DNA from: Nitrospinaceae bacterium
GTDB taxonomy: Bacteria > Nitrospinota > Nitrospinia > Nitrospinales > Nitrospinaceae
Direction: 5' to 3'
Length of the DNA: 64,000 nucleotides
Assembly: GCA_965223665.1 (NCBI GenBank)
Contig: OZ245011.1
Span: forward strand, 128,001 to 192,000
The first letter of the stretch is position 1; each line of letters starts with the position of its first letter. Below the pieces are notes generated by a model that worked only from the letters and a program-made list of their open reading frames with translations, ran no database searches and was not told the DNA's origin. This document shows positions 50,255 through 60,444 of this stretch, in pieces. The position numbers and the translations under genes are program-made.

Positions 50255-52000
50255 TTATACTGGCGTTTTGGTGGAATACAACTCCCGAGCCAATTCAATA
50301 TCCTGCGGAAAGTGTATTTCCAACCAACCTTTATGGATTTCTAAGTAATGTATATCAAAACCACGATCGACCATTTCTTGAAGTAGGTCTGTAAATCGAA
50401 ACTTAGAAATATCCTCAGCCTCTTGGATTTTTCCGACATGATTTTTGACACAATCATCGTAAGTATTTAAAAACTGCTCAGCTCCCCTTGGAGAGAACTT
50501 TGCCAACCCAACAAATTCATGGGTTGAGATGCTTGAGTCAATTCTCTTGCCGATTTTAGCAACTGTATTTTGATAGTCAAAGTTTATGTTGCGACGGAGA
50601 CGATTTTTTTTATTCTTGCTTACTACAAAATCCTGTAATTTTCCCGGAGTAGGCCCAAGGTATTGAATGGAATTGTCAACGACAACTACAATATCTTCTT
50701 TACAAGCTAATAATTGGCTGAATATGTTTTCAGCGACTAACAAATCGGAATATAAAATCAGAAATCCATTTTGAAGCTTATTTTTAGCCGCTAAAATTGA
50801 ATGAAGTTCGGTTCCTTTTTTGTAGTCAGTATGATGTATAAAGTTAACGCCTTCAGCACTCATTTTGCCGTTTTCATATCCCGTAATTACATTGATATCA
50901 GTTAAAAAATTTGCGTTCAGTGCTTCAATTTGCCTTTTCAAAAGGGTTTTTCCTGAAATTTCAAGCATGGCTTTGGGTATACTTCCAATAGCGGACTGAA
51001 GATCAGGGGCCGAACCTGCAGCTGGAATAATTACGGGTATATTTTTATTGGAAACATCCTGCTTATCTTTTTCTTTTACATCCAGAAATCCAACTGCTTC
51101 AAAAATTTCCTTTACCGGGGTGCAAAATGGGTCTGCTTCGAAAGATCGTTGATTTAACAATATGGATCTTGTCGTATCCATCATGGCTTTATAAGCTGAC
51201 CGTAAAAGATGGTTTGCATAAATAATAATTTGAAATCCTGATTTTTGTAATTCTGATTCCACAATGTTGTTATAAGTGGTAGGTACACAAACCAGAGGTT
51301 TTTTTACTCCCAATTCAGCTTGAAGGTCTTGATATTTTTGTGCGAACTCTAAAATTTCCCCAGGGTCTTTTGATTTTGAATGGATCATTATCCCATCTGC
51401 CCCTGCGGTTAAATATGCGCGAGCCCTTTGTAGAGCATCCTTTAATCCTGTTCCTGCAATCAGGCTTTCCAAACGGGCGATAATCATAAAGTCCGGTGTC
51501 ATTTGAACCTCTTTGCCTCGACGAATTTTGTGCGCAAATACTTCCGGTTCTTGCAACGATTGATTGGTTCCAGCTTCTAAGCTATTTCTCTTAGGAAATA
51601 CTTTGTCTTCAATAATGACAGCTGAAACTCCTGCACGTTCTAACTTTGAAACCGTATATTCAAAAATATTTGGATCTCCGCCCGTATCGCCATCAACAAT
51701 CATGGGTTTCCGAGTGACCGCTAGAATTTCGTTGATCGTATGAAATCGGGAATCAAAACTAATAACTTCAATATCTGGGTGACCTTTGGAGGCTGAATCT
51801 GTCAAGCTGCTTTCCCAAATAGCATCAAATTCTCTAATTATAGTATCATTTTCAAAAGTTCCCTCAATTCGAGCACAATCTGCAATAATACCGCTCAATC
51901 CATTGTGGGCTTCCATTACTCGAATAAGTTTTCCCTGGTTCAATAGTTTTCTTAACTGGTTGCGTCGGTTTTCGGGTAATATTTTACTTAAAAGAGTCAT
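50255..52000 (-). CDS. pepM: Phosphoenolpyruvate mutase fused to a C-terminal nucleotidyltransferase-like domain
   Basis: EAHNGLS, DGDTGG, PepM signature EDKVFPKRNS (EDKx5NS), IYANH; then IIPAAG...PKAML...YSDLL...GWLEI. Confidence 0.92.
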   Translation of the reverse strand: MTLLSKILPENRRNQLRKLLNQGKLIRVMEAHNGLSGIIADCARIEGTFENDTIIREFDAIWESSLTDSASKGHPDIEVISFDSRFHTINEILAVTRKPMIVDGDTGGDPNIFEYTVSKLERAGVSAVIIEDKVFPKRNSLEAGTNQSLQEPEVFAHKIRRGKEVQMTPDFMIIARLESLIAGTGLKDALQRARAYLTAGADGIMIHSKSKDPGEILEFAQKYQDLQAELGVKKPLVCVPTTYNNIVESELQKSGFQIIIYANHLLRSAYKAMMDTTRSILLNQRSFEADPFCTPVKEIFEAVGFLDVKEKDKQDVSNKNIPVIIPAAGSAPDLQSAIGSIPKAMLEISGKTLLKRQIEALNANFLTDINVITGYENGKMSAEGVNFIHHTDYKKGTELHSILAAKNKLQNGFLILYSDLLVAENIFSQLLACKEDIVVVVDNSIQYLGPTPGKLQDFVVSKNKKNRLRRNINFDYQNTVAKIGKRIDSSISTHEFVGLAKFSPRGAEQFLNTYDDCVKNHVGKIQEAEDISKFRFTDLLQEMVDRGFDIHYLEIHKGWLEIHFPQDIELARELYSTKTPV

Positions 52001-52292
52001 TTATTTTCGTCTCAAAAATTTCGTGATTTAGATATTCCCTAATCCATGAAGCTATATAAATTTCTTCGGTATCGTAATTTTTAAAGGCTTCAATCAGAAC
52101 TTTCATTTGGTTCAAAATTGGAAGTTTTTTATCTAAAAAAACTAATCCTTTTCCATTTAATTTGCAAAACCCACTTTTAATAGGGATATCTTCATTAGAA
52201 AGGTTAAAATATTGGATATCAATTCCTAATTTATCTGCCACCGATTTTAATTCTTCCCACCGCTGGTCATTATTATAGGTTTTGGCTAACAT
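51984..52292 (-). CDS. Conserved-looking hypothetical protein
   Basis: LKSVADKLGI...SGFCKLNGK.LVFLDK; overlaps the pepM start. Confidence 0.75.
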   Translation of the reverse strand: MLAKTYNNDQRWEELKSVADKLGIDIQYFNLSNEDIPIKSGFCKLNGKGLVFLDKKLPILNQMKVLIEAFKNYDTEEIYIASWIREYLNHEIFETKINDSFK

Positions 52293-52320: not shown

Positions 52321-53691
52321 TCAGTTAATAATTCTCATGATATCATTATAAAAAGCAAAAATCATTAGAGATATGAGCATAAATAATCCAACTTGCGAAG
52401 CTCGTTCTCGATTTTTCTCGCTTACGGGACGGCCTTTTATCATTTCAATTAAAAAGAAGAAAATGTGACCACCATCTAAAATTGGAATGGGCAATAGATT
52501 TAATAACCCCAGGTTAATACTTAAAAGGGCGGTTAATCGAATGAGTTCGTTAAAGCCCTGTTTTGCCTGTTCACCATATATTTGAAAAATCAGAATAGGG
52601 CCACCTATGCTTTCGGCGGAAATTGAACCGAATATCATTTTTTTTATGCTGGTAAAAATTAGATAGATTAATTTCCCAGTTTCAATAAATGAACGTTTAA
52701 TTGCTCCAAAAAAACCATATTGCTCGAGAATCAGGTCTCCTGTAATGGCAATTCCTAACCAGCCCAACTCTATTTCTTTTCCGTTTTCATCTTGAATGAT
52801 TTTAGATTCAGGAGTTACTTTGATTTCTAAATCTAGCCCATCTCTTTTGATTTGAACATTTAACTCTTTTCCCGCTTTGTCTTTGGTGGTTTCTTTAAGA
52901 TCGGTCCAACTACGGATTTTTGTTCCATCAATGGAAACTAATTGATCTCCCTCTAATAATCCCGCTTTATGAGCTGCTGAGCCCTCTTTGACATAGCTTA
53001 TATTATGAACCAAAGGGTTAATGCCAATCAGTCCCACCCTTTCTTTTTCTCCAAATAAATCAGGAACTTCTTCCGTGACAGGAGTGATTCCTACTTCAAA
53101 AAGTTCTTTCTTATCCCTTTCAATTAAAAACTTTAGTTCTTTGTTTGGGGAATTGCGAACAATTTTCACTAGCCGATCCCAAAACTGAATTGGTTGGCCT
53201 TCGACTTCGACTATTCGATCACCTGATTTTAGTCCTGCTTCTAAGGCGGGAGAAGAATCTCTAACAGTTCCAATGGTGGTTCCTAAGGTAGAAACACCGT
53301 TCATATAAACTACAACATAAATTGCTATAGCAAATAATATGTTAAATAAGGGGCCCGCAAATGCGATAGCCAACCTATGGAGGACAGGTGCAGTTGAAAA
53401 AGAACCTTTGCTATCTTCAAGTTCTTCGCCCGGGTCCTCTCCTTTCATTTTTACATAGCCTCCTAACGGAATGGAGGCAATTAAATATTCAGTGCCTGAT
53501 TTTGTAAACCCTAAAAGTTTAGGGCCAAATCCCAGGGCAAATTTTTCGACTATGACTCCGCATTTTCTAGCAACCAAAAAATGCCCAAGTTCATGAACAA
53601 AAATTAAAGCTGCCAAACCACCAAGAAACACTACCATCTTAGTGCCAAATGCAAAAAAAGATTCTAATGAAAAAACTGCTGTTTCAATCAT
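52321..53691 (-). CDS. rseP: RIP metalloprotease RseP
   Basis: HELGH, PLGGYVKM, two PDZ domains and NLLPIPILDGG. Confidence 0.96.
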   Translation of the reverse strand: MIETAVFSLESFFAFGTKMVVFLGGLAALIFVHELGHFLVARKCGVIVEKFALGFGPKLLGFTKSGTEYLIASIPLGGYVKMKGEDPGEELEDSKGSFSTAPVLHRLAIAFAGPLFNILFAIAIYVVVYMNGVSTLGTTIGTVRDSSPALEAGLKSGDRIVEVEGQPIQFWDRLVKIVRNSPNKELKFLIERDKKELFEVGITPVTEEVPDLFGEKERVGLIGINPLVHNISYVKEGSAAHKAGLLEGDQLVSIDGTKIRSWTDLKETTKDKAGKELNVQIKRDGLDLEIKVTPESKIIQDENGKEIELGWLGIAITGDLILEQYGFFGAIKRSFIETGKLIYLIFTSIKKMIFGSISAESIGGPILIFQIYGEQAKQGFNELIRLTALLSINLGLLNLLPIPILDGGHIFFFLIEMIKGRPVSEKNRERASQVGLFMLISLMIFAFYNDIMRIIN

Positions 53692-53693
53692 AA

Positions 53694-54374
53694 TTAATTT
53701 GATTTTTTATCTGAAGAAGTAAAGTCAATCAACTCAACACCTGGCGGAACCTGGAAATGAAAAGTTTCATCAGGAGTGTCGGGATTGATCGTAATGTTTG
53801 TAAAGATCATTTCTGTTTGATTACCTAGTTTATCGTAAACTCGGGAGCCAATTATCTGATAACTACTATTGTCCGCAAATATGGTCATCCGGTCAATATT
53901 ATCATTGGATTCTTTAGGAATTAATTCGACACTTACGGAATCTTTATTTCGAGTTACTTTCCCAATATTAAACGTTTGGGTTAGTTTCCCTTTCCCTGCT
54001 AGAAACAGGGCGGGAGTATTTGAAGAATAAATGCTTCCAATTTGCATTTTAGTAACTTGGCTTTCTTCAGGCAAAAAAAGCCAAAGAGCTTTTGCATCAC
54101 TAATTAGTATTTGCGGGTCCGGAGCAGTGTAATCCCATTTCATACGTCCAGGTTTTTTAATAATTACTTCACCTTTTGCAGTTTGAGTTTGGCCCATTAC
54201 TTTTAAAAATGATTTTTGGATGAAATCAGCTTTAAATGTTTGGGTTTCGTCATACCGCTTTTGAATAGCATCAATTATGTTTTGGGAATCATTGGCAAAT
54301 GCAGTTTGAGACCAGAAATAAAAAATAAAAGCGGTTATCAAAAAACGATTTGTTTTGAGGGCGGCTGAAAACAT
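53694..54374 (-). CDS. lolA: Outer-membrane lipoprotein carrier LolA
   Basis: Signal peptide; ADFIQ, KKPGRMKWDY..P..Q and FHFQVPPGV. Confidence 0.9.
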   Translation of the reverse strand: MFSAALKTNRFLITAFIFYFWSQTAFANDSQNIIDAIQKRYDETQTFKADFIQKSFLKVMGQTQTAKGEVIIKKPGRMKWDYTAPDPQILISDAKALWLFLPEESQVTKMQIGSIYSSNTPALFLAGKGKLTQTFNIGKVTRNKDSVSVELIPKESNDNIDRMTIFADNSSYQIIGSRVYDKLGNQTEMIFTNITINPDTPDETFHFQVPPGVELIDFTSSDKKSN

Positions 54375-54385
54375 TTATTTTCTTC

Positions 54386-55000
54386 TTATATTAAATTAAC
54401 TTTTCTATTATTTATCTGTATTTTTTTTTCTGCGATTAATTTAATGGCCTCCGGATAGATTTTATGCTCCTGCTCCAAGATCCGTTTGGATAGTGATTCT
54501 TCATCATCATTGTCTAAGACAGGAACGACAGCTTGAAGTATGATAGGCCCAGAATCCACCTCTTCGTTCACATAGTGAACGGTACAACCAGAAAATTTAA
54601 CACCATAATCAATTGCTTTTTGTTGCACATTTAATCCCGGGAATGCTGGAAGTAGGGAAGGGTGAATATTTATAATTTTGTTTGGAAACGATTGTATGAA
54701 TTCTTTCCCTAGAATTTTCATGTAACCTGCCAAGCAGATCAAGTCTACATTATGTTCTTTTAGTTCAGTGGCCAAAGCCAAATCATAATCAGATTTGGAG
54801 TTAAACTTCTTAGGGTCCAAAAAAATTGACTTTATTCCATGGCTCTTTGCTCTTTCCAAAGCAGGTGCATCCTTTTTGTTACTTAAAATGATTTCAATGG
54901 TTGCTGGAATGTTTCCCCGAGAAATTTGATCAATAATTGCTTGCAAATTGGTTCCCCGACCGGAAACCAGGACACCGATTTTTAAATCATCCGAAGCCAT
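54386..55000 (-). CDS. purN: Phosphoribosylglycinamide formyltransferase
   Basis: SGRGTNLQA, LAGYMKIL, NIHPSLLP, GCTVHYV and DSGPII. Confidence 0.97.
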   Translation of the reverse strand: MASDDLKIGVLVSGRGTNLQAIIDQISRGNIPATIEIILSNKKDAPALERAKSHGIKSIFLDPKKFNSKSDYDLALATELKEHNVDLICLAGYMKILGKEFIQSFPNKIINIHPSLLPAFPGLNVQQKAIDYGVKFSGCTVHYVNEEVDSGPIILQAVVPVLDNDDEESLSKRILEQEHKIYPEAIKLIAEKKIQINNRKVNLI

Positions 55001-55071: not shown

Positions 55072-57285
55072 TTAAACAGCTACGGGTTGCAAAATGTCTG
55101 CCTGTATTTGTTTTAACAAGCCTATGTTTTGTGTATGGCCAGATTTATGGGCTTTTATATAACCTCGGATTGGTCTGCCAAGTAAGTAAAAGTCTCCCAA
55201 TATGTCCAAAATTTTATGTCGAGCAAATTCGTTTTCATAACGCAATTTCGTATTTAAGACTTTTTGGTCTCCCAAAAGAATAAAGTTGTCAAGTTTACCC
55301 CCTGCGCCAAACCCCATTTTTGTTAACTGCGCAACTTCTTCGACAAATCCAAAAGTTCTAGCCGGAGCAATTTCTTCTTTAAATCCTTTAGAGTCAACAA
55401 ACTCAAAGGTGTGATCCATAACTCCAATGGGTGCAGGATATTCCATATGGTACGACACTTTGAAACCATTATAGGGTTCAATGCTAATGGAAGGTCCCTT
55501 TTCATCCTCTGCTCCATAACTATAAGTTTTGTCAATTATTAATTCGTCCATAAGCTCGTCTTGTTCTTCAAATTCACCATCTTCAATTAATTGACAAAAA
55601 TCTTTTGCCGACCCATCCATCACTGGAGCTTCATCACTGATTTTAATAAGAAGATTTGAAATGCGATACATATGCAAGGTGGCCATTATATGTTCAATGG
55701 TTAGAACAGATGAATATCCTTTTTTCAGACAGGTTGCATAATCAGTAGATTGGACATTTTCTAAACGGGCGGGAATAGTATCTCCGCTAGAAATATCCCC
55801 GAATACAATTCCACTCCCTGGTGGCATAGGTTGCATAATTAAACCTGTTTTTATTCCAGAGTGCAGTCCATGGCCGCAAAGCACAACACTACGTTTAAGT
55901 GTTCTTTGGAATTGATGTTGAGGCGAACCACTTTTGGCAGCACTTAACGGAAGAACAATATTATGTTGCTGAAGTTTGGTTTTTAGTTTGTCGGTATCAG
56001 TTTTTAATGTTTTACTTGTTTCATCTAAATTCCATTTGTTTTTTCGAAGATGATGAATAATAAATTCACGCTCCCAGCTTCTTTCTGCATCTTGTAATGA
56101 GTCAAAGCTTTCAAATACCGACTTATCCCAATGTTGTTCCAGGTTGCGAATGGATTCGGGTAAGTCATGGAATCGAATGGGATCCTTTGAAGGAACTTTA
56201 GATGAAAGTTGATCTAGAACTTTCCTTAATTCCTTTAAATTTTCTGGCCACTCATATCCCATTAACGCCTTAAGAGCTTCCTCAGAAATATCCCTTGGGC
56301 TGTGTCCGCTTTCTTCCGCCTGCTCCGCAAAGTATTTTTCCACTAGATTCGGAATGAGAGCTGAGTTTTCTCTTAGGGGAGAAATGGTTAATTGGTTCTT
56401 ATTTAAAATCTGATATAGATCTTTATTAAATTTTCCTTTATCTACCAACTCCTGTAAATTTTGGGTTGTTGAAGCAAAAATTCGGTTAGGAAGTAGTTCT
56501 AAGTTTGTATTTCCTTCGGATCCTTTATATGCCAAAACTTCGGCTAATTTTTCTTGAAGTGTTTTATTTAGGCCTTCTATATTTTTTAAATAAATTGATC
56601 TGGGGTTATAAGAAGGTTCAGAATTTTTATTATCCGTTTTTGATTTTCGATTAGTAATAAAAAGCTCAGATTGGACTGCAGATTTGGTTCGAATTGCACA
56701 ATTTACCTTTACTAAGGGATATTGGGAATTTTTACTTGCATTATGGATAGCCTGAGCAATAAATTCTTTTGCTGTACCAATTTCTCCAGTAATTATCACA
56801 GGTTCGTTATTTTTAGAGGCATCATTTATTCCTCTTTTAACGTCTACCATGAGTTGGAAACAATGAGGAAGTTCTTGCTTTCCTAAAGACTTTTTGCCAT
56901 TAGAATGAAATCTGGTTTTTTGAAGTTGGAGGGCTTTTTCTACAGATTGAACTAACTCATCTAATGAGAATGGTTTCTCAATAAAATCATATGCTCCCAA
57001 CTTTGTGGCTTTGACGGCCGTATCTACTGTCCCATGACCAGACATAACAAGTACTTCTATTTCAGGGTGGTAGGTTTTAACGGTTTTCAAAACTTCAATG
57101 CCATCCATTCCAGGGATCCAAATATCAAGAAGAATTAATTCGGGTGGATCAGCCTGGATCATTTCCAGGGCAGTAATTCCATCTTCTGCAGTAGTGATTT
57201 CATAACCTTCATCTTTTAAAATATCCTGAAGAGAAGATACAATATTTTTTTCGTCGTCAACGATTAAAATTCTTTCTTTAGACAA
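55072..57285 (-). CDS. lpxC: Fusion: NtrX/NtrC-like receiver, degenerate AAA+, HTH and LpxC (UDP-3-O-acyl-GlcNAc deacetylase)
   Basis: One ORF. REC: VDDE, LDIW, MSGHG, KPF. LpxC: QRTL...G.GLHSG, TIEH, EAPVMDGSA, IAPARTFGF, HKILD.LGD, SGH. GGAGG RBS before TTG 57285. Confidence 0.92.
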   Translation of the reverse strand: MSKERILIVDDEKNIVSSLQDILKDEGYEITTAEDGITALEMIQADPPELILLDIWIPGMDGIEVLKTVKTYHPEIEVLVMSGHGTVDTAVKATKLGAYDFIEKPFSLDELVQSVEKALQLQKTRFHSNGKKSLGKQELPHCFQLMVDVKRGINDASKNNEPVIITGEIGTAKEFIAQAIHNASKNSQYPLVKVNCAIRTKSAVQSELFITNRKSKTDNKNSEPSYNPRSIYLKNIEGLNKTLQEKLAEVLAYKGSEGNTNLELLPNRIFASTTQNLQELVDKGKFNKDLYQILNKNQLTISPLRENSALIPNLVEKYFAEQAEESGHSPRDISEEALKALMGYEWPENLKELRKVLDQLSSKVPSKDPIRFHDLPESIRNLEQHWDKSVFESFDSLQDAERSWEREFIIHHLRKNKWNLDETSKTLKTDTDKLKTKLQQHNIVLPLSAAKSGSPQHQFQRTLKRSVVLCGHGLHSGIKTGLIMQPMPPGSGIVFGDISSGDTIPARLENVQSTDYATCLKKGYSSVLTIEHIMATLHMYRISNLLIKISDEAPVMDGSAKDFCQLIEDGEFEEQDELMDELIIDKTYSYGAEDEKGPSISIEPYNGFKVSYHMEYPAPIGVMDHTFEFVDSKGFKEEIAPARTFGFVEEVAQLTKMGFGAGGKLDNFILLGDQKVLNTKLRYENEFARHKILDILGDFYLLGRPIRGYIKAHKSGHTQNIGLLKQIQADILQPVAV

Positions 57286-57328
57286 GGAAACCTCCAAGTT
57301 TGGGGAGTCATCATTGATGGGATTTAAG

Positions 57329-58006
57329 TCAACCGGCTGGCGCAGGTTCGACTAGATTTGAAAATACATATTCCTCGTGTTTTTGAAAATCAAAATAAAA
57401 AATGGATTTCCCAATTTTTAAAAAGTTTTTTTCATATTTAGTCTGAGGAATTCCATTCCTAACATGGGAAAACCCACTTTTTTTGTTAAGGTTCAACAAA
57501 CTAGGCTCTTCTTCTAAATAAGATAACATTTCTGTTGCATAGGGTTCAAAATCAGTAGCAATTTTTAACGTGCCTCCTGGGGCAATCTTTTGGGCTAACA
57601 CATTAATGAAGTCAGGTTTGATTAACCTACGCTTAATGTGTCTTTTCTTTGGCCACGGATCTGGGAAGTTAATAAAAATTTCATCCAACTCACCATCTTT
57701 AAAAAGAACCGGTACTCGCTCCTTAGCATCCCCATAAATGATTCGTACGTTTGGAATTTGAAAACGATCTAACTTCATAATCGTTTTGCGGATGCCCTTA
57801 TGGTAAAAGTCAAGGCCTAAAAAGTTGCTATTCGGGTCACTAATAGCCATATCTAATAAAAATTTTCCATTACCAAAACCAATTTCTAATTTTAAGGGTT
57901 TTTGGCATTTAAAATTCTCATCCCAATTTGGATAAACATCTGTATCTATAAAAAAGGGGTGACCGGACGCAATTTGTTCAAAAGGAATTAATGGCTTTGA
58001 GGACAT
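57329..58006 (-). CDS. trmB: tRNA (guanine-N7)-methyltransferase
   Basis: LEIGFGNG, NFPDPWPKKRH.KRR, ATD and TKYE. Confidence 0.96.
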   Translation of the reverse strand: MSSKPLIPFEQIASGHPFFIDTDVYPNWDENFKCQKPLKLEIGFGNGKFLLDMAISDPNSNFLGLDFYHKGIRKTIMKLDRFQIPNVRIIYGDAKERVPVLFKDGELDEIFINFPDPWPKKRHIKRRLIKPDFINVLAQKIAPGGTLKIATDFEPYATEMLSYLEEEPSLLNLNKKSGFSHVRNGIPQTKYEKNFLKIGKSIFYFDFQKHEEYVFSNLVEPAPAG

Positions 58007-58032
58007 TAGTTTAAGTTAATTGGAGTTATTTT

Positions 58033-58500
58033 TTATTCATCATGTATTGTTTTTATTTGAATGACTTCATATTCCAAGCTTTCTCCACCAATGGAGAGAG
58101 AAATTTCGTCTCCTTCCATTTTACCTAAAAGAGATCGGCCAATAGGGGAAGCTAATGAAACTTTTCCATCCTCCGGTGAAACTTCTTCTGGAAAAACCAG
58201 GAAGTAAGTTTTTTCCTCACCTGAATTTGCATTCTTTAATACTAATGAACTACCAAGTCCTGAACGATCTTTTGGAATCCGATCAATATTGATTGCCATA
58301 ACATCACTAATTCGCTTTTGTAATTGAGAAATTCTTGCCTCTAAAAACATTTGCCTTTCCTTAGCGGCCTTATATTCAGCGTTTTCACTTAAGTCTCCCA
58401 TTTCTGTTGCCGTTTTAAGAGCTTTGGGAATATCGATCTCAAGTTCATTTTTTGATTCCATTAAGGATTTTTCTAATTTATCAAGAATAGGTAATCTCAT
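58033..58500 (-). CDS. greA: Transcription elongation factor GreA
   Basis: GDLSENAEYKAAKE and SPIGRSLLGK.EGD. Confidence 0.93.
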   Translation of the reverse strand: MRLPILDKLEKSLMESKNELEIDIPKALKTATEMGDLSENAEYKAAKERQMFLEARISQLQKRISDVMAINIDRIPKDRSGLGSSLVLKNANSGEEKTYFLVFPEEVSPEDGKVSLASPIGRSLLGKMEGDEISLSIGGESLEYEVIQIKTIHDE

Positions 58501-58652
58501 AATCGATTTAATTTTTCTTCAGAAGGAAATTGGAAAATAAAAAATTGTAAAATAAGTAGTGACATTAAAGGAATGGAGCAATATAGGGGCTTCCCTTAAG
58601 CTTATAAAATAGCATAATTAGCAGGCAAAAAACTAGAGTTTCAATGATTGTT

Positions 58653-59216
58653 TTAAGGTGAATTGTTTAAGGTTTTAGGATTTCCTGGGCCTTTTTTATG
58701 GGGTTCAATAATCGATAGTCGGACTTTTGCGATCCCCTCGTTTGCTAATCCTAATATTTTGGCGGCTTTGTAACTAAGGTCTATAATCCGGTTTTTTACG
58801 AAAGGTCCGCGATCATTGATTCTAACCACAACTTCTTTACCGTTTTCCAGGTGGGTAACTCGGACTAAGGAATTAAAAGGAAGTGTTTTATGTGCAGCAG
58901 TTAAAGAGTACATATTAAAATGCTCTCTATTAGAAGTAAATTCTCCATGAAATCTTTTACCATACCAGGAAGCTATTCCTTCCTGGGAAAAACCCTTAGA
59001 GTCCTTCAGGGGATAGTAAACTACTCCCTTCACCCCATAGGGTTTAAAATACTTCGATAATTGCCCAGAATCTCTAAGTGCTTGTTGTTTTGCCATTTGG
59101 ATAAACAGTAAGGACGAGGCTGAGCAGGTAAGTATTGCTGGACCAAATATAAATCCAGGTAGCAAAAATAACAAACTAAAAAAGAGTAGATACTTTATTT
59201 TATAGATTGGGACCAT
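58653..59216 (-). CDS. rlpA: RlpA-family lytic transglycosylase (DPBB domain)
   Basis: [18 protein letters not shown] and [14 protein letters not shown]. Start uncertain. Confidence 0.9.
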
Positions 59217-59589: not shown

Positions 59590-60444
59590 ATGCGCGAAGT
59601 CTTACTAAAGTTAATTGAAGAAAAAAGTAATATACCCCCTTTGCCTGATATTCTTTTGAGGTTGGAGTCAAAAATTGAAGATCCGAAGAGTAAGGTCAGT
59701 GATATTGCTATTCTAATTGAAACGGAACCCATCTTAGCGGGTAGATTAATTAAATTGTCGAATAGTGTTTTTTTTGGAGGTGGGAGAGAAAAGGTAGAGC
59801 ATTTACATAAAGCCATTCTTCGTTTAGGTCTAAAAATGATTTTGGATTTAGCTTATACCTTGGAAATCCCCAAAATATTTTCAAAGGGAAATGCATTCGA
59901 TCAAAAAAAGTTTTGGCAACATTCCTTAGCGGTGGCAATTTTATCAAGATTATTAAGTACGGAAATAAAGGCTTTTAATACCGAACCAGATTTATGTTAC
60001 CTCTCAGGATTAATGCATGACATAGGAATTTTGGTTTTTAATTTTTTAATTCCATCAAAATATGCGGGTTTTCTTCAGCAAATTAAAGGTTCCGATTGTC
60101 CCCTTGAGGAGTTAGAAAGAGAAGAATTTGGAATAGCTCATCCGGAACTGGGATCTCTTTTTATCAAGAAATGGTGGCCGGTACCCAGTGAAGTTGTGAC
60201 TGCTGTGGATAAACATTATTTAAGAGCTTCTGAAAAAGGAAAAAACTATCCAGAACTTTTAGTCGTAATTTTAGCGAACTCTATCGCAAATAACTATCAA
60301 ATGGGTCACGAAATTTGTAATGACGTGGAGCCATTTAATTCGAAGTTTATTGAAACATTGGGGATAGGAAATCGACAAATGGAAGATATTGTTGATGAAA
60401 CGCGTGAAAGCCTACAAATGGCTAAACAGGTATTGTTTAAGTGA
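59590..60444 (+). CDS. HDOD-domain protein
   Basis: IPPLP, EP.LAGRLIKLSNS, FWQHSLAVA, GLMHDIG and HPELG. Confidence 0.92.
   Translation: MREVLLKLIEEKSNIPPLPDILLRLESKIEDPKSKVSDIAILIETEPILAGRLIKLSNSVFFGGGREKVEHLHKAILRLGLKMILDLAYTLEIPKIFSKGNAFDQKKFWQHSLAVAILSRLLSTEIKAFNTEPDLCYLSGLMHDIGILVFNFLIPSKYAGFLQQIKGSDCPLEELEREEFGIAHPELGSLFIKKWWPVPSEVVTAVDKHYLRASEKGKNYPELLVVILANSIANNYQMGHEICNDVEPFNSKFIETLGIGNRQMEDIVDETRESLQMAKQVLFK

Follow-up and report, generated by a model that had tools for sequence, protein, structure and literature searches.

A 64,000-nucleotide (nt) stretch of contig OZ245011.1 from a Nitrospinaceae bacterium (assembly GCA_965223665.1, positions 128,001 to 192,000 of the forward strand; hereafter the window) carries a gene whose product, judged by its sequence, is the sole LpxC of the organism and consists of an NtrX-type response regulator with the enzyme as its output domain. 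A receiver (REC), a degenerate sigma54-type AAA+ module with its lid, a helix-turn-helix (HTH)-like segment and a complete LpxC follow one another in a single uninterrupted frame of 741 codons on the minus strand (55072-57297). Flux through lipid A synthesis is controlled at LpxC, the enzyme is a major target of antibiotics, and how it is regulated beyond a few proteobacteria is an open question. The reading favored here, to which we assign a probability of roughly 0.6, is that a membrane kinase of the NtrY type phosphorylates D58 of the receiver and that the ensuing change in the receiver modulates the attached LpxC post-translationally.

The C-terminal domain of the fusion protein matches the Pfam LpxC family (PF03331) with 263.7 bits (cut-off 27) over profile positions 1-267 of 268, passes the cut-off of the NCBIfam equivalog TIGR00325 (221.3 bits against 187.25) and aligns end to end with the Pseudomonas aeruginosa LpxC structures (174 bits). 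Its TIEH (533), HKILD (694) and KSGH (718) motifs, which had already been picked out in an earlier reading of the stretch from its letters alone (the sequence-only reading), stand in register with the TVEH, HKILD and KSGH of the P. aeruginosa enzyme, and E535, H536, D561, T648, F649, H694, K695, D698 and H721 are invariant in all 32 fused sequences compared. From work on the Escherichia coli and P. aeruginosa enzymes we take the conserved His/His/Asp to be the zinc ligands and the Glu/His to be catalytic. The fused gene supplies the only LpxC match in its own genome (G000, 98.6% complete), elsewhere in which LpxB, LpxD and LpxK were found when the rest of the pathway was sampled. These features point to the fusion protein as the LpxC of the cell, with a predicted deacetylase activity.

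The frame is open throughout, as the sequence-only reading had it, and the product counted from the TTG at 57285 is 100% identical to a protein-database entry (P0001). This TTG is probably the real start of the gene, because a GGAGG lies 5 nt before it and because P0001 is 737 aa long, and the N-terminus so placed fits the family consensus MxKERILIVDDE; residue numbers throughout are nevertheless those of the 741-aa frame, which begins at the first in-frame TTG (57297). That an assembly or frameshift artefact joined two separate genes is exceedingly improbable, and this reading was rejected: the same frame recurs in more than 100 independent genomes, and contigs of four public sequencing runs (two samples of one study, possibly the window's own source) span the gene and, when compared with it, show zero differing letters and zero indels, including at the junction, where a stop or frameshift had been proposed as the thing to look for. 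Further, the junction (…QHQFQRTLKRS…) contains no start-like residue, Met or other, which speaks against joined genes and also makes it unlikely that translation from an internal start yields LpxC as a product of its own; the internal-start reading was likewise set aside.

The fusion is not peculiar to this organism. A survey of 120 Nitrospinota genomes, 57 of them high-quality (with families labelled f1, f2 and so on), found one LpxC match in 108, including 56 of the high-quality ones, and nearly all of these matches lie in frames of 670-800 aa. Those below this range either are contig-end fragments or belong to two lineages, f5 with a 514-aa REC + HTH_8 + LpxC protein and f7 with a 447-aa REC + LpxC protein. 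The full architecture is present in all 120 of the best protein-database relatives, which, where names are given, come from Nitrospinota, Nitrospinaceae or Nitromaritima and have products annotated as "LpxC" or "NtrX". When the library is clustered at 50% identity, about 16 long fused representatives, with the AAA+ module, and about 25 short ones, without it, are obtained, and records labelled Candidatus Tectomicrobia were reached through P0128, a distant long form. Additionally, a scan of a genome collection with one genome per species returned more than 594 loci, the best 80 of which comprise 29 with REC and LpxC in one frame, 2 split by a frameshift and 49 with plain LpxC. The fused loci are labelled Thermoanaerobaculia, Holophagae, Acidobacteriota, Syntrophobacteraceae, Desulfomonile, Thermodesulfobacteriota, Binatia (Binatota) and Thermodesulfovibrionia, and no LpxC match besides the fused gene turned up in any of the five genomes of other phyla that were tested. 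The search for this domain architecture across genomes, which the sequence-only reading had put forward as a check, shows the fusion to be widespread across several phyla; the gene is real and ancient, and members of six or more labelled phyla or groups have it as their sole LpxC.

Two observations on individual members may be recorded here. In two metagenome-assembled genomes, L062 (labelled Thermodesulfobacteriota) and L063 ("delta proteobacterium"), the fused gene lies in two overlapping frames, owing to a frameshift error or else to a break of recent date. Separately, P0329 and P0331-P0333, which are short REC(+HTH)+LpxC relatives of P0128, match a 735-aa long form with 83-93% identity in the parts they share with it, and this suggests very recent AAA+ deletions within a single lineage.

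The receiver retains the residues expected of a phosphorylatable domain, namely the acidic pair D14/D15, the phospho-acceptor D58 (codon 57124-57126), S86 and K108. The motifs reported for it from the letters alone are all in place (VDDE at 13, LLDIW at 56 containing Asp58, MSGHG at 85 and EKPF at 107). All 71 long forms carry D14, D15, D58 and K108 unchanged, with S86 kept at 90% or above. Among the 16 short forms the corresponding D8, D9 and K103 (P0154 numbering) are likewise invariant, and the phospho-acceptor Asp is present in 15.

Comparison of the modules with one another reveals a marked disparity in constraint. Across 21 long forms standing for the Nitrospinota genera, the mean pairwise identity is 75% for both REC and LpxC, as against 41% for the AAA+ core, 37% for the lid and 25% for the first linker. 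The AAA+ module is missing altogether from 26 of 65 fused rows, and it is deleted in families f5 and f7. No module other than REC and LpxC is present throughout the fused forms, and REC is always joined to LpxC. In a tree of the LpxC domain, 65 fused sequences are split from 49 free ones by one branch with a Shimodaira-Hasegawa-like approximate likelihood-ratio (SH-aLRT) support of 100, and none of the 49 free sequences nests within the fused clade, a pattern that fits a single origin of the fusion with no reversion to free LpxC. The same tree calls for at least eight changes between long and short forms, a count of lower confidence given the quick tree search and its many open forks. The neutral explanation, in which neighboring ntrX and lpxC genes fused by a frozen accident and the receiver regulates nothing, could draw on the fact that fusions of neighboring genes are known to occur. 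However, it is very improbable in the face of a receiver that evolves at the pace of LpxC, of phospho-site residues conserved across several phyla, of REC remaining in frame with LpxC after every one of the eight or more internal changes, and of the lack of any return to free LpxC among the 49 nearest free sequences.

The fused LpxC clade is also set apart by signature residues (V472, T484, G485, H542, L550, K552, C568, Y620, L674 and T683), of which K552 is replaced by Glu or Asp in free LpxC, and by small indels of 1-3 residues. The signature residues, spread over 472-683 (window about 55249-55884), are candidate sites of a regulatory interface.

By descent the N-terminal half appears to be a decayed NtrX, with an AAA+ core that is predicted to be catalytically dead. 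The best solved relative of this half is Brucella abortus NtrX (5m7n), with 217 bits over residues 10-443. The GAFTGA motif is absent from all 29 long fused rows and a variable Ser/Lys-rich loop stands in its place, which in the AlphaFold2 (AF2) model of the window protein (residues 218-229) has a predicted local distance difference test (pLDDT) score below 50. None of the 19 rows from families f1-f4 retains the Asp-Glu of Walker B, which is Asn-Ile in the window protein, and the second Arg of FRxDLYYRL, presumably the arginine finger, is kept in none of the 29 long fused rows. Walker A presents a different picture: G171, G174 and K177 are invariant in all 71 long forms, GxxGxGK is kept in 17 of the 19 rows of families f1-f4, and the Gly-to-Ala change is found only in the window's genus (the window protein and that of G018). 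Thus, of the degenerate AAA+ region described in the sequence-only reading, the missing GAFTGA loop and the IYLKNIE version of Walker B hold good, whereas the Walker A defect is specific to a genus and not a property of the family. Taken together, the lost motifs indicate that the module cannot contact sigma54 or hydrolyze ATP, although binding of a nucleotide without hydrolysis would still be possible because the Walker A Lys and two Gly are invariant. The protein does not show the traits by which sigma54 activators are defined. Sigma54 itself is encoded in the same genome, as are several ordinary NtrC-type regulators at 29-34% identity.

The Fis-like HTH that had been proposed to follow the AAA+ region is supported by alignment and not by profile. 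Pfam HTH_8 gives no match to the window protein at E<0.1, and PF02954 is listed for none of the 120 best database relatives in their precomputed domain lists; on the other hand, the segment containing FIIHHLRKNKW (412) aligns with the Brucella NtrX HTH and is modelled by AF2 as three helices (401-419, 424-430 and 435-444; block pLDDT about 78-89). These data bear on a further explanation, namely that the forms which keep the HTH are mainly NtrX-like transcription factors, with LpxC as a constitutive passenger fused for the sake of co-expression or stoichiometry. Consistent with it, the HTH-like helices are retained in 14 of 24 Nitrospinota rows at a mean identity of 49%, HTH_8 is detectable by Pfam in relatives (27.8 bits in L002, 20.4 bits in L040, and many rows near P0128), and an alphaproteobacterial NtrX is reported to bind DNA without sigma54 at sites mapped by ChIP-seq (PMC7240162). 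Against it, in addition to the failure of the profile searches, the segment is deleted in the other 10 of the 24 Nitrospinota rows and is not seen in most of the short forms of the genome-collection scan. DNA binding cannot explain the keeping of the fusion, since the HTH is lost while REC-LpxC persists, and this explanation is accordingly rated as unlikely.

The neighborhood of the fused gene in relatives furnishes a candidate for the cognate kinase. In families f5, f7 and f9, which are deep lineages of Nitrospinota, an NtrY-type gene lies directly upstream of the fused gene, overlapping its start in f5 and f7. In 12 of the 31 fused loci of the genome collection an NtrY-like gene (31-40% identity, full length) occupies the same position, two of these loci also having a DUF4390 gene. 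Representative orders are mutS, DUF4390, kinase, fusion, purN (L040) and DUF4390, NtrY, fusion, purN, lolA, rseP (L053). The statement of the sequence-only reading that no cognate kinase is adjacent is correct within the window, but an orphan NtrY candidate with a DUF4390 partner is encoded about 99 kb from the fused gene in the same genome. This protein of 771 aa contains NtrY_N, HAMP, PAS, HisKA and HATPase_c domains and shares 54% identity with the f5 kinase, while no paralogue exceeds 35%; its gene is preceded by mutS and DUF4390 and followed by an aldehyde dehydrogenase gene, with no adjacent regulator. Four of the five closest REC-containing NtrC-type paralogues of the fusion (29-34% identity) already adjoin one of the weaker kinase matches, which leaves NtrY as an orphan kinase and the fusion as an orphan regulator. 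An NtrY orthologue (E<=1e-100) is present in 103 of the 120 Nitrospinota genomes and in 54 of the 57 high-quality ones. Further, genomes of the collection without an adjacent kinase have an NtrY-like match elsewhere in five of five cases, and four of these matches reach the N-terminal region.

In seven family f1 genomes (G000, G018, G019, G022, G023, G025 and G036) the ntrY and DUF4390 genes (L020 5767-8731 in G000) lie 93-99 kb from the fused lpxC. Since this spacing is common to the seven, the breakup of an ancestral ntrY-fusion pair looks like a single old rearrangement.

With the architecture conserved, the catalytic and phospho-acceptor residues intact, the fused gene as sole copy and the kinase linked to it in relatives, a plausible course of events may be outlined. 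Membrane-bound NtrY and a periplasmic DUF4390 (PlrP-like) partner would detect an envelope or periplasmic cue, upon which phosphate would pass from NtrY to receiver Asp58. The resulting change in the receiver, probably a dimerization or a docking through a flexible linker, would then shift the output or the availability of LpxC, and the level of lipid A synthesis would thereby be fixed post-translationally. The AAA+ module would be a relic of a full NtrX, serving at most as a spacer or scaffold, and the HTH-like segment of the window's genus would be a dispensable remnant that may hold some DNA binding. The phosphotransfer and the effect on LpxC, including its sign, are what we infer; because loss of ntrYX in Rhodobacter sphaeroides raises lpxC mRNA and lipopolysaccharide (LPS), one might speculate by analogy that the phosphorylated state restrains LpxC. 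The proposal of the sequence-only reading that the receiver controls LpxC is hence strengthened by the retention of REC with LpxC, the conserved phospho-residues and the kinase linkage, its mechanism staying conjectural.

A broader version of this scheme is tentative, and we would put it at somewhat less than even odds. It regards NtrY/DUF4390 and REC-LpxC as a dedicated, ancient phosphorelay that would read the envelope's state and switch LpxC directly, in a matter of seconds, with neither transcription nor proteolysis involved. Envelope homeostasis would then be the ancestral job of NtrYX, the puzzling lpxC and LPS phenotypes of alphaproteobacterial ntrYX mutants would be its remnant, and the pseudo-ATPase, through its invariant Walker A Lys, would perhaps add nucleotide (energy-state) sensing.

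Alternatively, the receiver might set the amount of LpxC instead of its activity, with phosphorylation or the disordered linkers gating proteolysis as a phospho-degron counterpart of the FtsH/LapB system. Enterobacterial LpxC is indeed controlled by degradation (PMC12444477), and disordered linkers are present: the full-length AF2 model, with a predicted template-modelling (pTM) score of 0.49, has pLDDT below 50 at 130-141, 387-398 and 451-459, and the short-form model (pTM 0.69) has a 42-residue disordered linker at 128-169. Additionally, an open reading frame (ORF) for a LapB-like protein with TPR and zinc-ribbon regions occurs in the same genome outside the window (L042 289-1590), scoring 99.6 bits against a cut-off of 363. 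However, no link to a protease was seen, and the keeping of REC and LpxC with loss of the middle is fitted equally well by control of activity and control of stability; proteolytic gating is therefore given a low probability, comparable to that of the transcription-factor explanation. As regards LapB, the first PF18073 match was rejected as a candidate, being RadA, with the zinc ribbon only.

Several observations weigh against direct control of LpxC by NtrY through the receiver. NtrY is unlinked to the fusion in the window's genome and in all of families f1-f4, so that the pairing here is argued from orthology and exclusion. The phospho-acceptor is replaced in P0139 (a long form, by Ser) and in P0140 (a short form, by Asn), which may be phosphorylation-independent variants, and since these two lack the Asp, phosphorylation is not universal in the fused family. 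The best NCBIfam model for the N-terminal half is NtrX (NF051870), with 272.2 bits against a cut-off of 600; the protein thus fails the NCBIfam cut-off for NtrX. The AF2 models, confident in the domains and not in their arrangement, do not allow a contact surface between REC and LpxC to be named. The LpxC tree comes from a quick search with an unplaced root, and its 49 free sequences are the most similar of more than 594 candidates. Finally, none of the public sequencing runs listed as holding the fusion stretch is an RNA run. A complex prediction between the REC part (1-128) and the LpxC part (460-741), made without controls, scored 0.00 and speaks neither way.

The features of the gene and its surroundings are collected in Table 1. 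The upstream order of rlpA-like, greA and trmB-type genes recurs in the loci of families f1-f4, with no kinase gene in 57329..59216, and purN, lolA and rseP flank the fused gene in distant relatives as well. The proximity of lolA, rseP and rlpA had been pointed out before, and all three, identified by Pfam, lie on the strand of the fusion. Directly downstream of rseP (51984-52292, minus strand) is a 102-aa ORF with no Pfam family; six other Nitrospinota loci have it in that same place, with identities of 40-78%. It is followed by a gene (50255-52000, minus strand) for a 581-aa fusion of a phosphoenolpyruvate (PEP) mutase domain (184 bits) to a MobA-like nucleotidyltransferase, by its domains a gene of phosphonate-pathway type beside an envelope gene cluster. 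Just past rlpA, on the opposite strand (59590-60444, plus), a signaling protein with HDOD and HD domains is encoded.

Table 1. Positions of the fusion gene, its domains and motifs, and associated genes (window coordinates unless another contig is named)
Feature	Position	Strand	Basis or remark
Whole fusion frame	55072..57297	(-)	741 aa from TTG 57297; stop codon 55072-55074
Likely true start	57283..57295	(-)	GGAGG 57291-57295, 5-nt spacer, TTG 57283-57285, giving 737 aa
Receiver (REC), residues 10-119	56941..57270	(-)	Pfam Response_reg, 110 bits
Degenerate sigma54-type AAA+ core, residues 150-303	56389..56850	(-)	Pfam Sigma54_activat, 86 bits
Walker A GEIGTAKE	56764-56787	(-)	starts at residue 171
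Walker B remnant IYLKNIE	56575-56595	(-)	starts at residue 235
AAA+ lid, residues 313-390	56128..56361	(-)	Pfam AAA_lid_14, 48 bits
HTH-like three-helix segment, residues 401-444	55966..56097	(-)	alignment to Brucella NtrX 5m7n; AF2 helices
LpxC domain, residues 464-732	55102..55908	(-)	Pfam LpxC and TIGR00325; E535/H536, H694/K695/D698, H721
rlpA-like DPBB	58653-59216	(-)	upstream of fusion, Pfam
greA	58033-58500	(-)	upstream of fusion, Pfam
trmB-type methyltransferase	57329-58006	(-)	upstream of fusion, Pfam
purN	54386-55000	(-)	downstream of fusion, Pfam
lolA	53694-54374	(-)	downstream of fusion, Pfam
rseP-type M50 protease	52321-53691	(-)	downstream of fusion, Pfam
Orphan ntrY of the same genome, outside the window	G000:C1:281769-284081 (L020 5767-8082)		orthology to f5 kinase

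The NtrYX pathway and LpxC have already been linked genetically in other organisms: in R. sphaeroides deletion of ntrYX raises lpxC mRNA 8.8-fold and increases LPS (PMC7240162), and in Caulobacter crescentus, a 2025 review states, both lpxC transcripts and LPS are brought down by NtrYX (PMC12444477). According to a 2026 paper, some NtrYX systems have DUF4390 (PlrP) as a third component (PMC13001219). The controls of LpxC enumerated in the available text of the 2025 review are FtsH/LapB/YejM proteolysis, MurA binding and Lon, along with transcriptional effects of NtrYX and ChvGI (PMC12444477). In the portions of these sources at hand, the words "fused", "fusion" and "receiver" are absent from the lipid A regulation review (PMC12444477), as are "LpxC" and "Nitrospin" from the PlrP paper (PMC13001219). 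Literature searches, with subscription journals and supplements outside their scope, found no description of a receiver-LpxC protein, and as far as searched the fusion is so far undescribed. If the favored reading holds, it would work as a response regulator whose output is enzymatic and represent a new mode of LpxC control, with outer-membrane synthesis probably governed by a membrane sensor kinase at the enzyme itself.

Against this background, the closest known system is NtrX. The 443 N-terminal residues of the fusion align along the whole of Brucella NtrX, and both combine REC and a sigma54-type AAA+ without GAFTGA, followed by a C-terminal HTH region in NtrX and by the HTH-like segment in the fusion. 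However, the Brucella protein (5m7n) keeps the Asp-Glu of Walker B as well as the second Arg in FRxDLYYRL, which the fusion protein has lost, and NtrX itself has no counterpart of the entire C-terminal LpxC enzyme. The partner kinase of the fusion contains NtrY_N and its gene is preceded by DUF4390, as is the case with plrP in Bordetella, and the beta-proteobacterial NtrX proteins that lack the AAA+ module offer a parallel to the fused short forms (both in the available text of PMC13001219). While the known connection between NtrX and lpxC is transcriptional and indirect, here it is a covalent fusion, a "Rosetta stone" joining NtrYX signaling to LpxC.

On the enzyme side, the LpxC proteins of P. 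aeruginosa, Aquifex aeolicus and E. coli match the fused LpxC over its full length and have all zinc-binding and catalytic motifs in common with it. The fused LpxCs differ in forming a distinct clade that never occurs free, and the known controls of LpxC, as covered in the available part of the review, involve no receiver (PMC12444477). LpxC-FabZ (NF009667) is likewise a fusion of LpxC, but its partner is C-terminal and a metabolic dehydratase. The window protein ends 9 residues beyond the LpxC domain with no C-terminal FabZ domain, and scores 203 bits with NF009667 against a cut-off of 465, the match being confined to profile positions 4-302 of 464.

A comparison by role, and not by orthology, may be drawn with the Desulfovibrio regulator DVU2934, whose single mapped target in a 2011 study is lpxC; in Syntrophobacter fumaroxidans lpxC adjoins the operon of the orthologous regulator (PMC3333781, in the part available). 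This too is a two-component pathway dedicated to the committed step in making lipid A, but the regulator and LpxC are separate proteins and the control is exerted on DNA. The receiver-LpxC fusion offers a ready-made and biochemically simple system in which to test direct control of outer-membrane synthesis by phosphorylation.

Response regulators with enzymatic outputs are exemplified by CheB, PleD/WspR and RpfG, which, like the fusion, consist of a receiver, a flexible linker and an enzyme that phosphorylation would switch. The outputs of these proteins are enzymes of signaling or chemotaxis, whereas that of the fusion is the committed step of an envelope biosynthetic pathway. The fusion differs further in having been born from a transcription factor with decaying output modules, and its long and short forms document the stepwise conversion of such a factor into a regulator of an enzyme.

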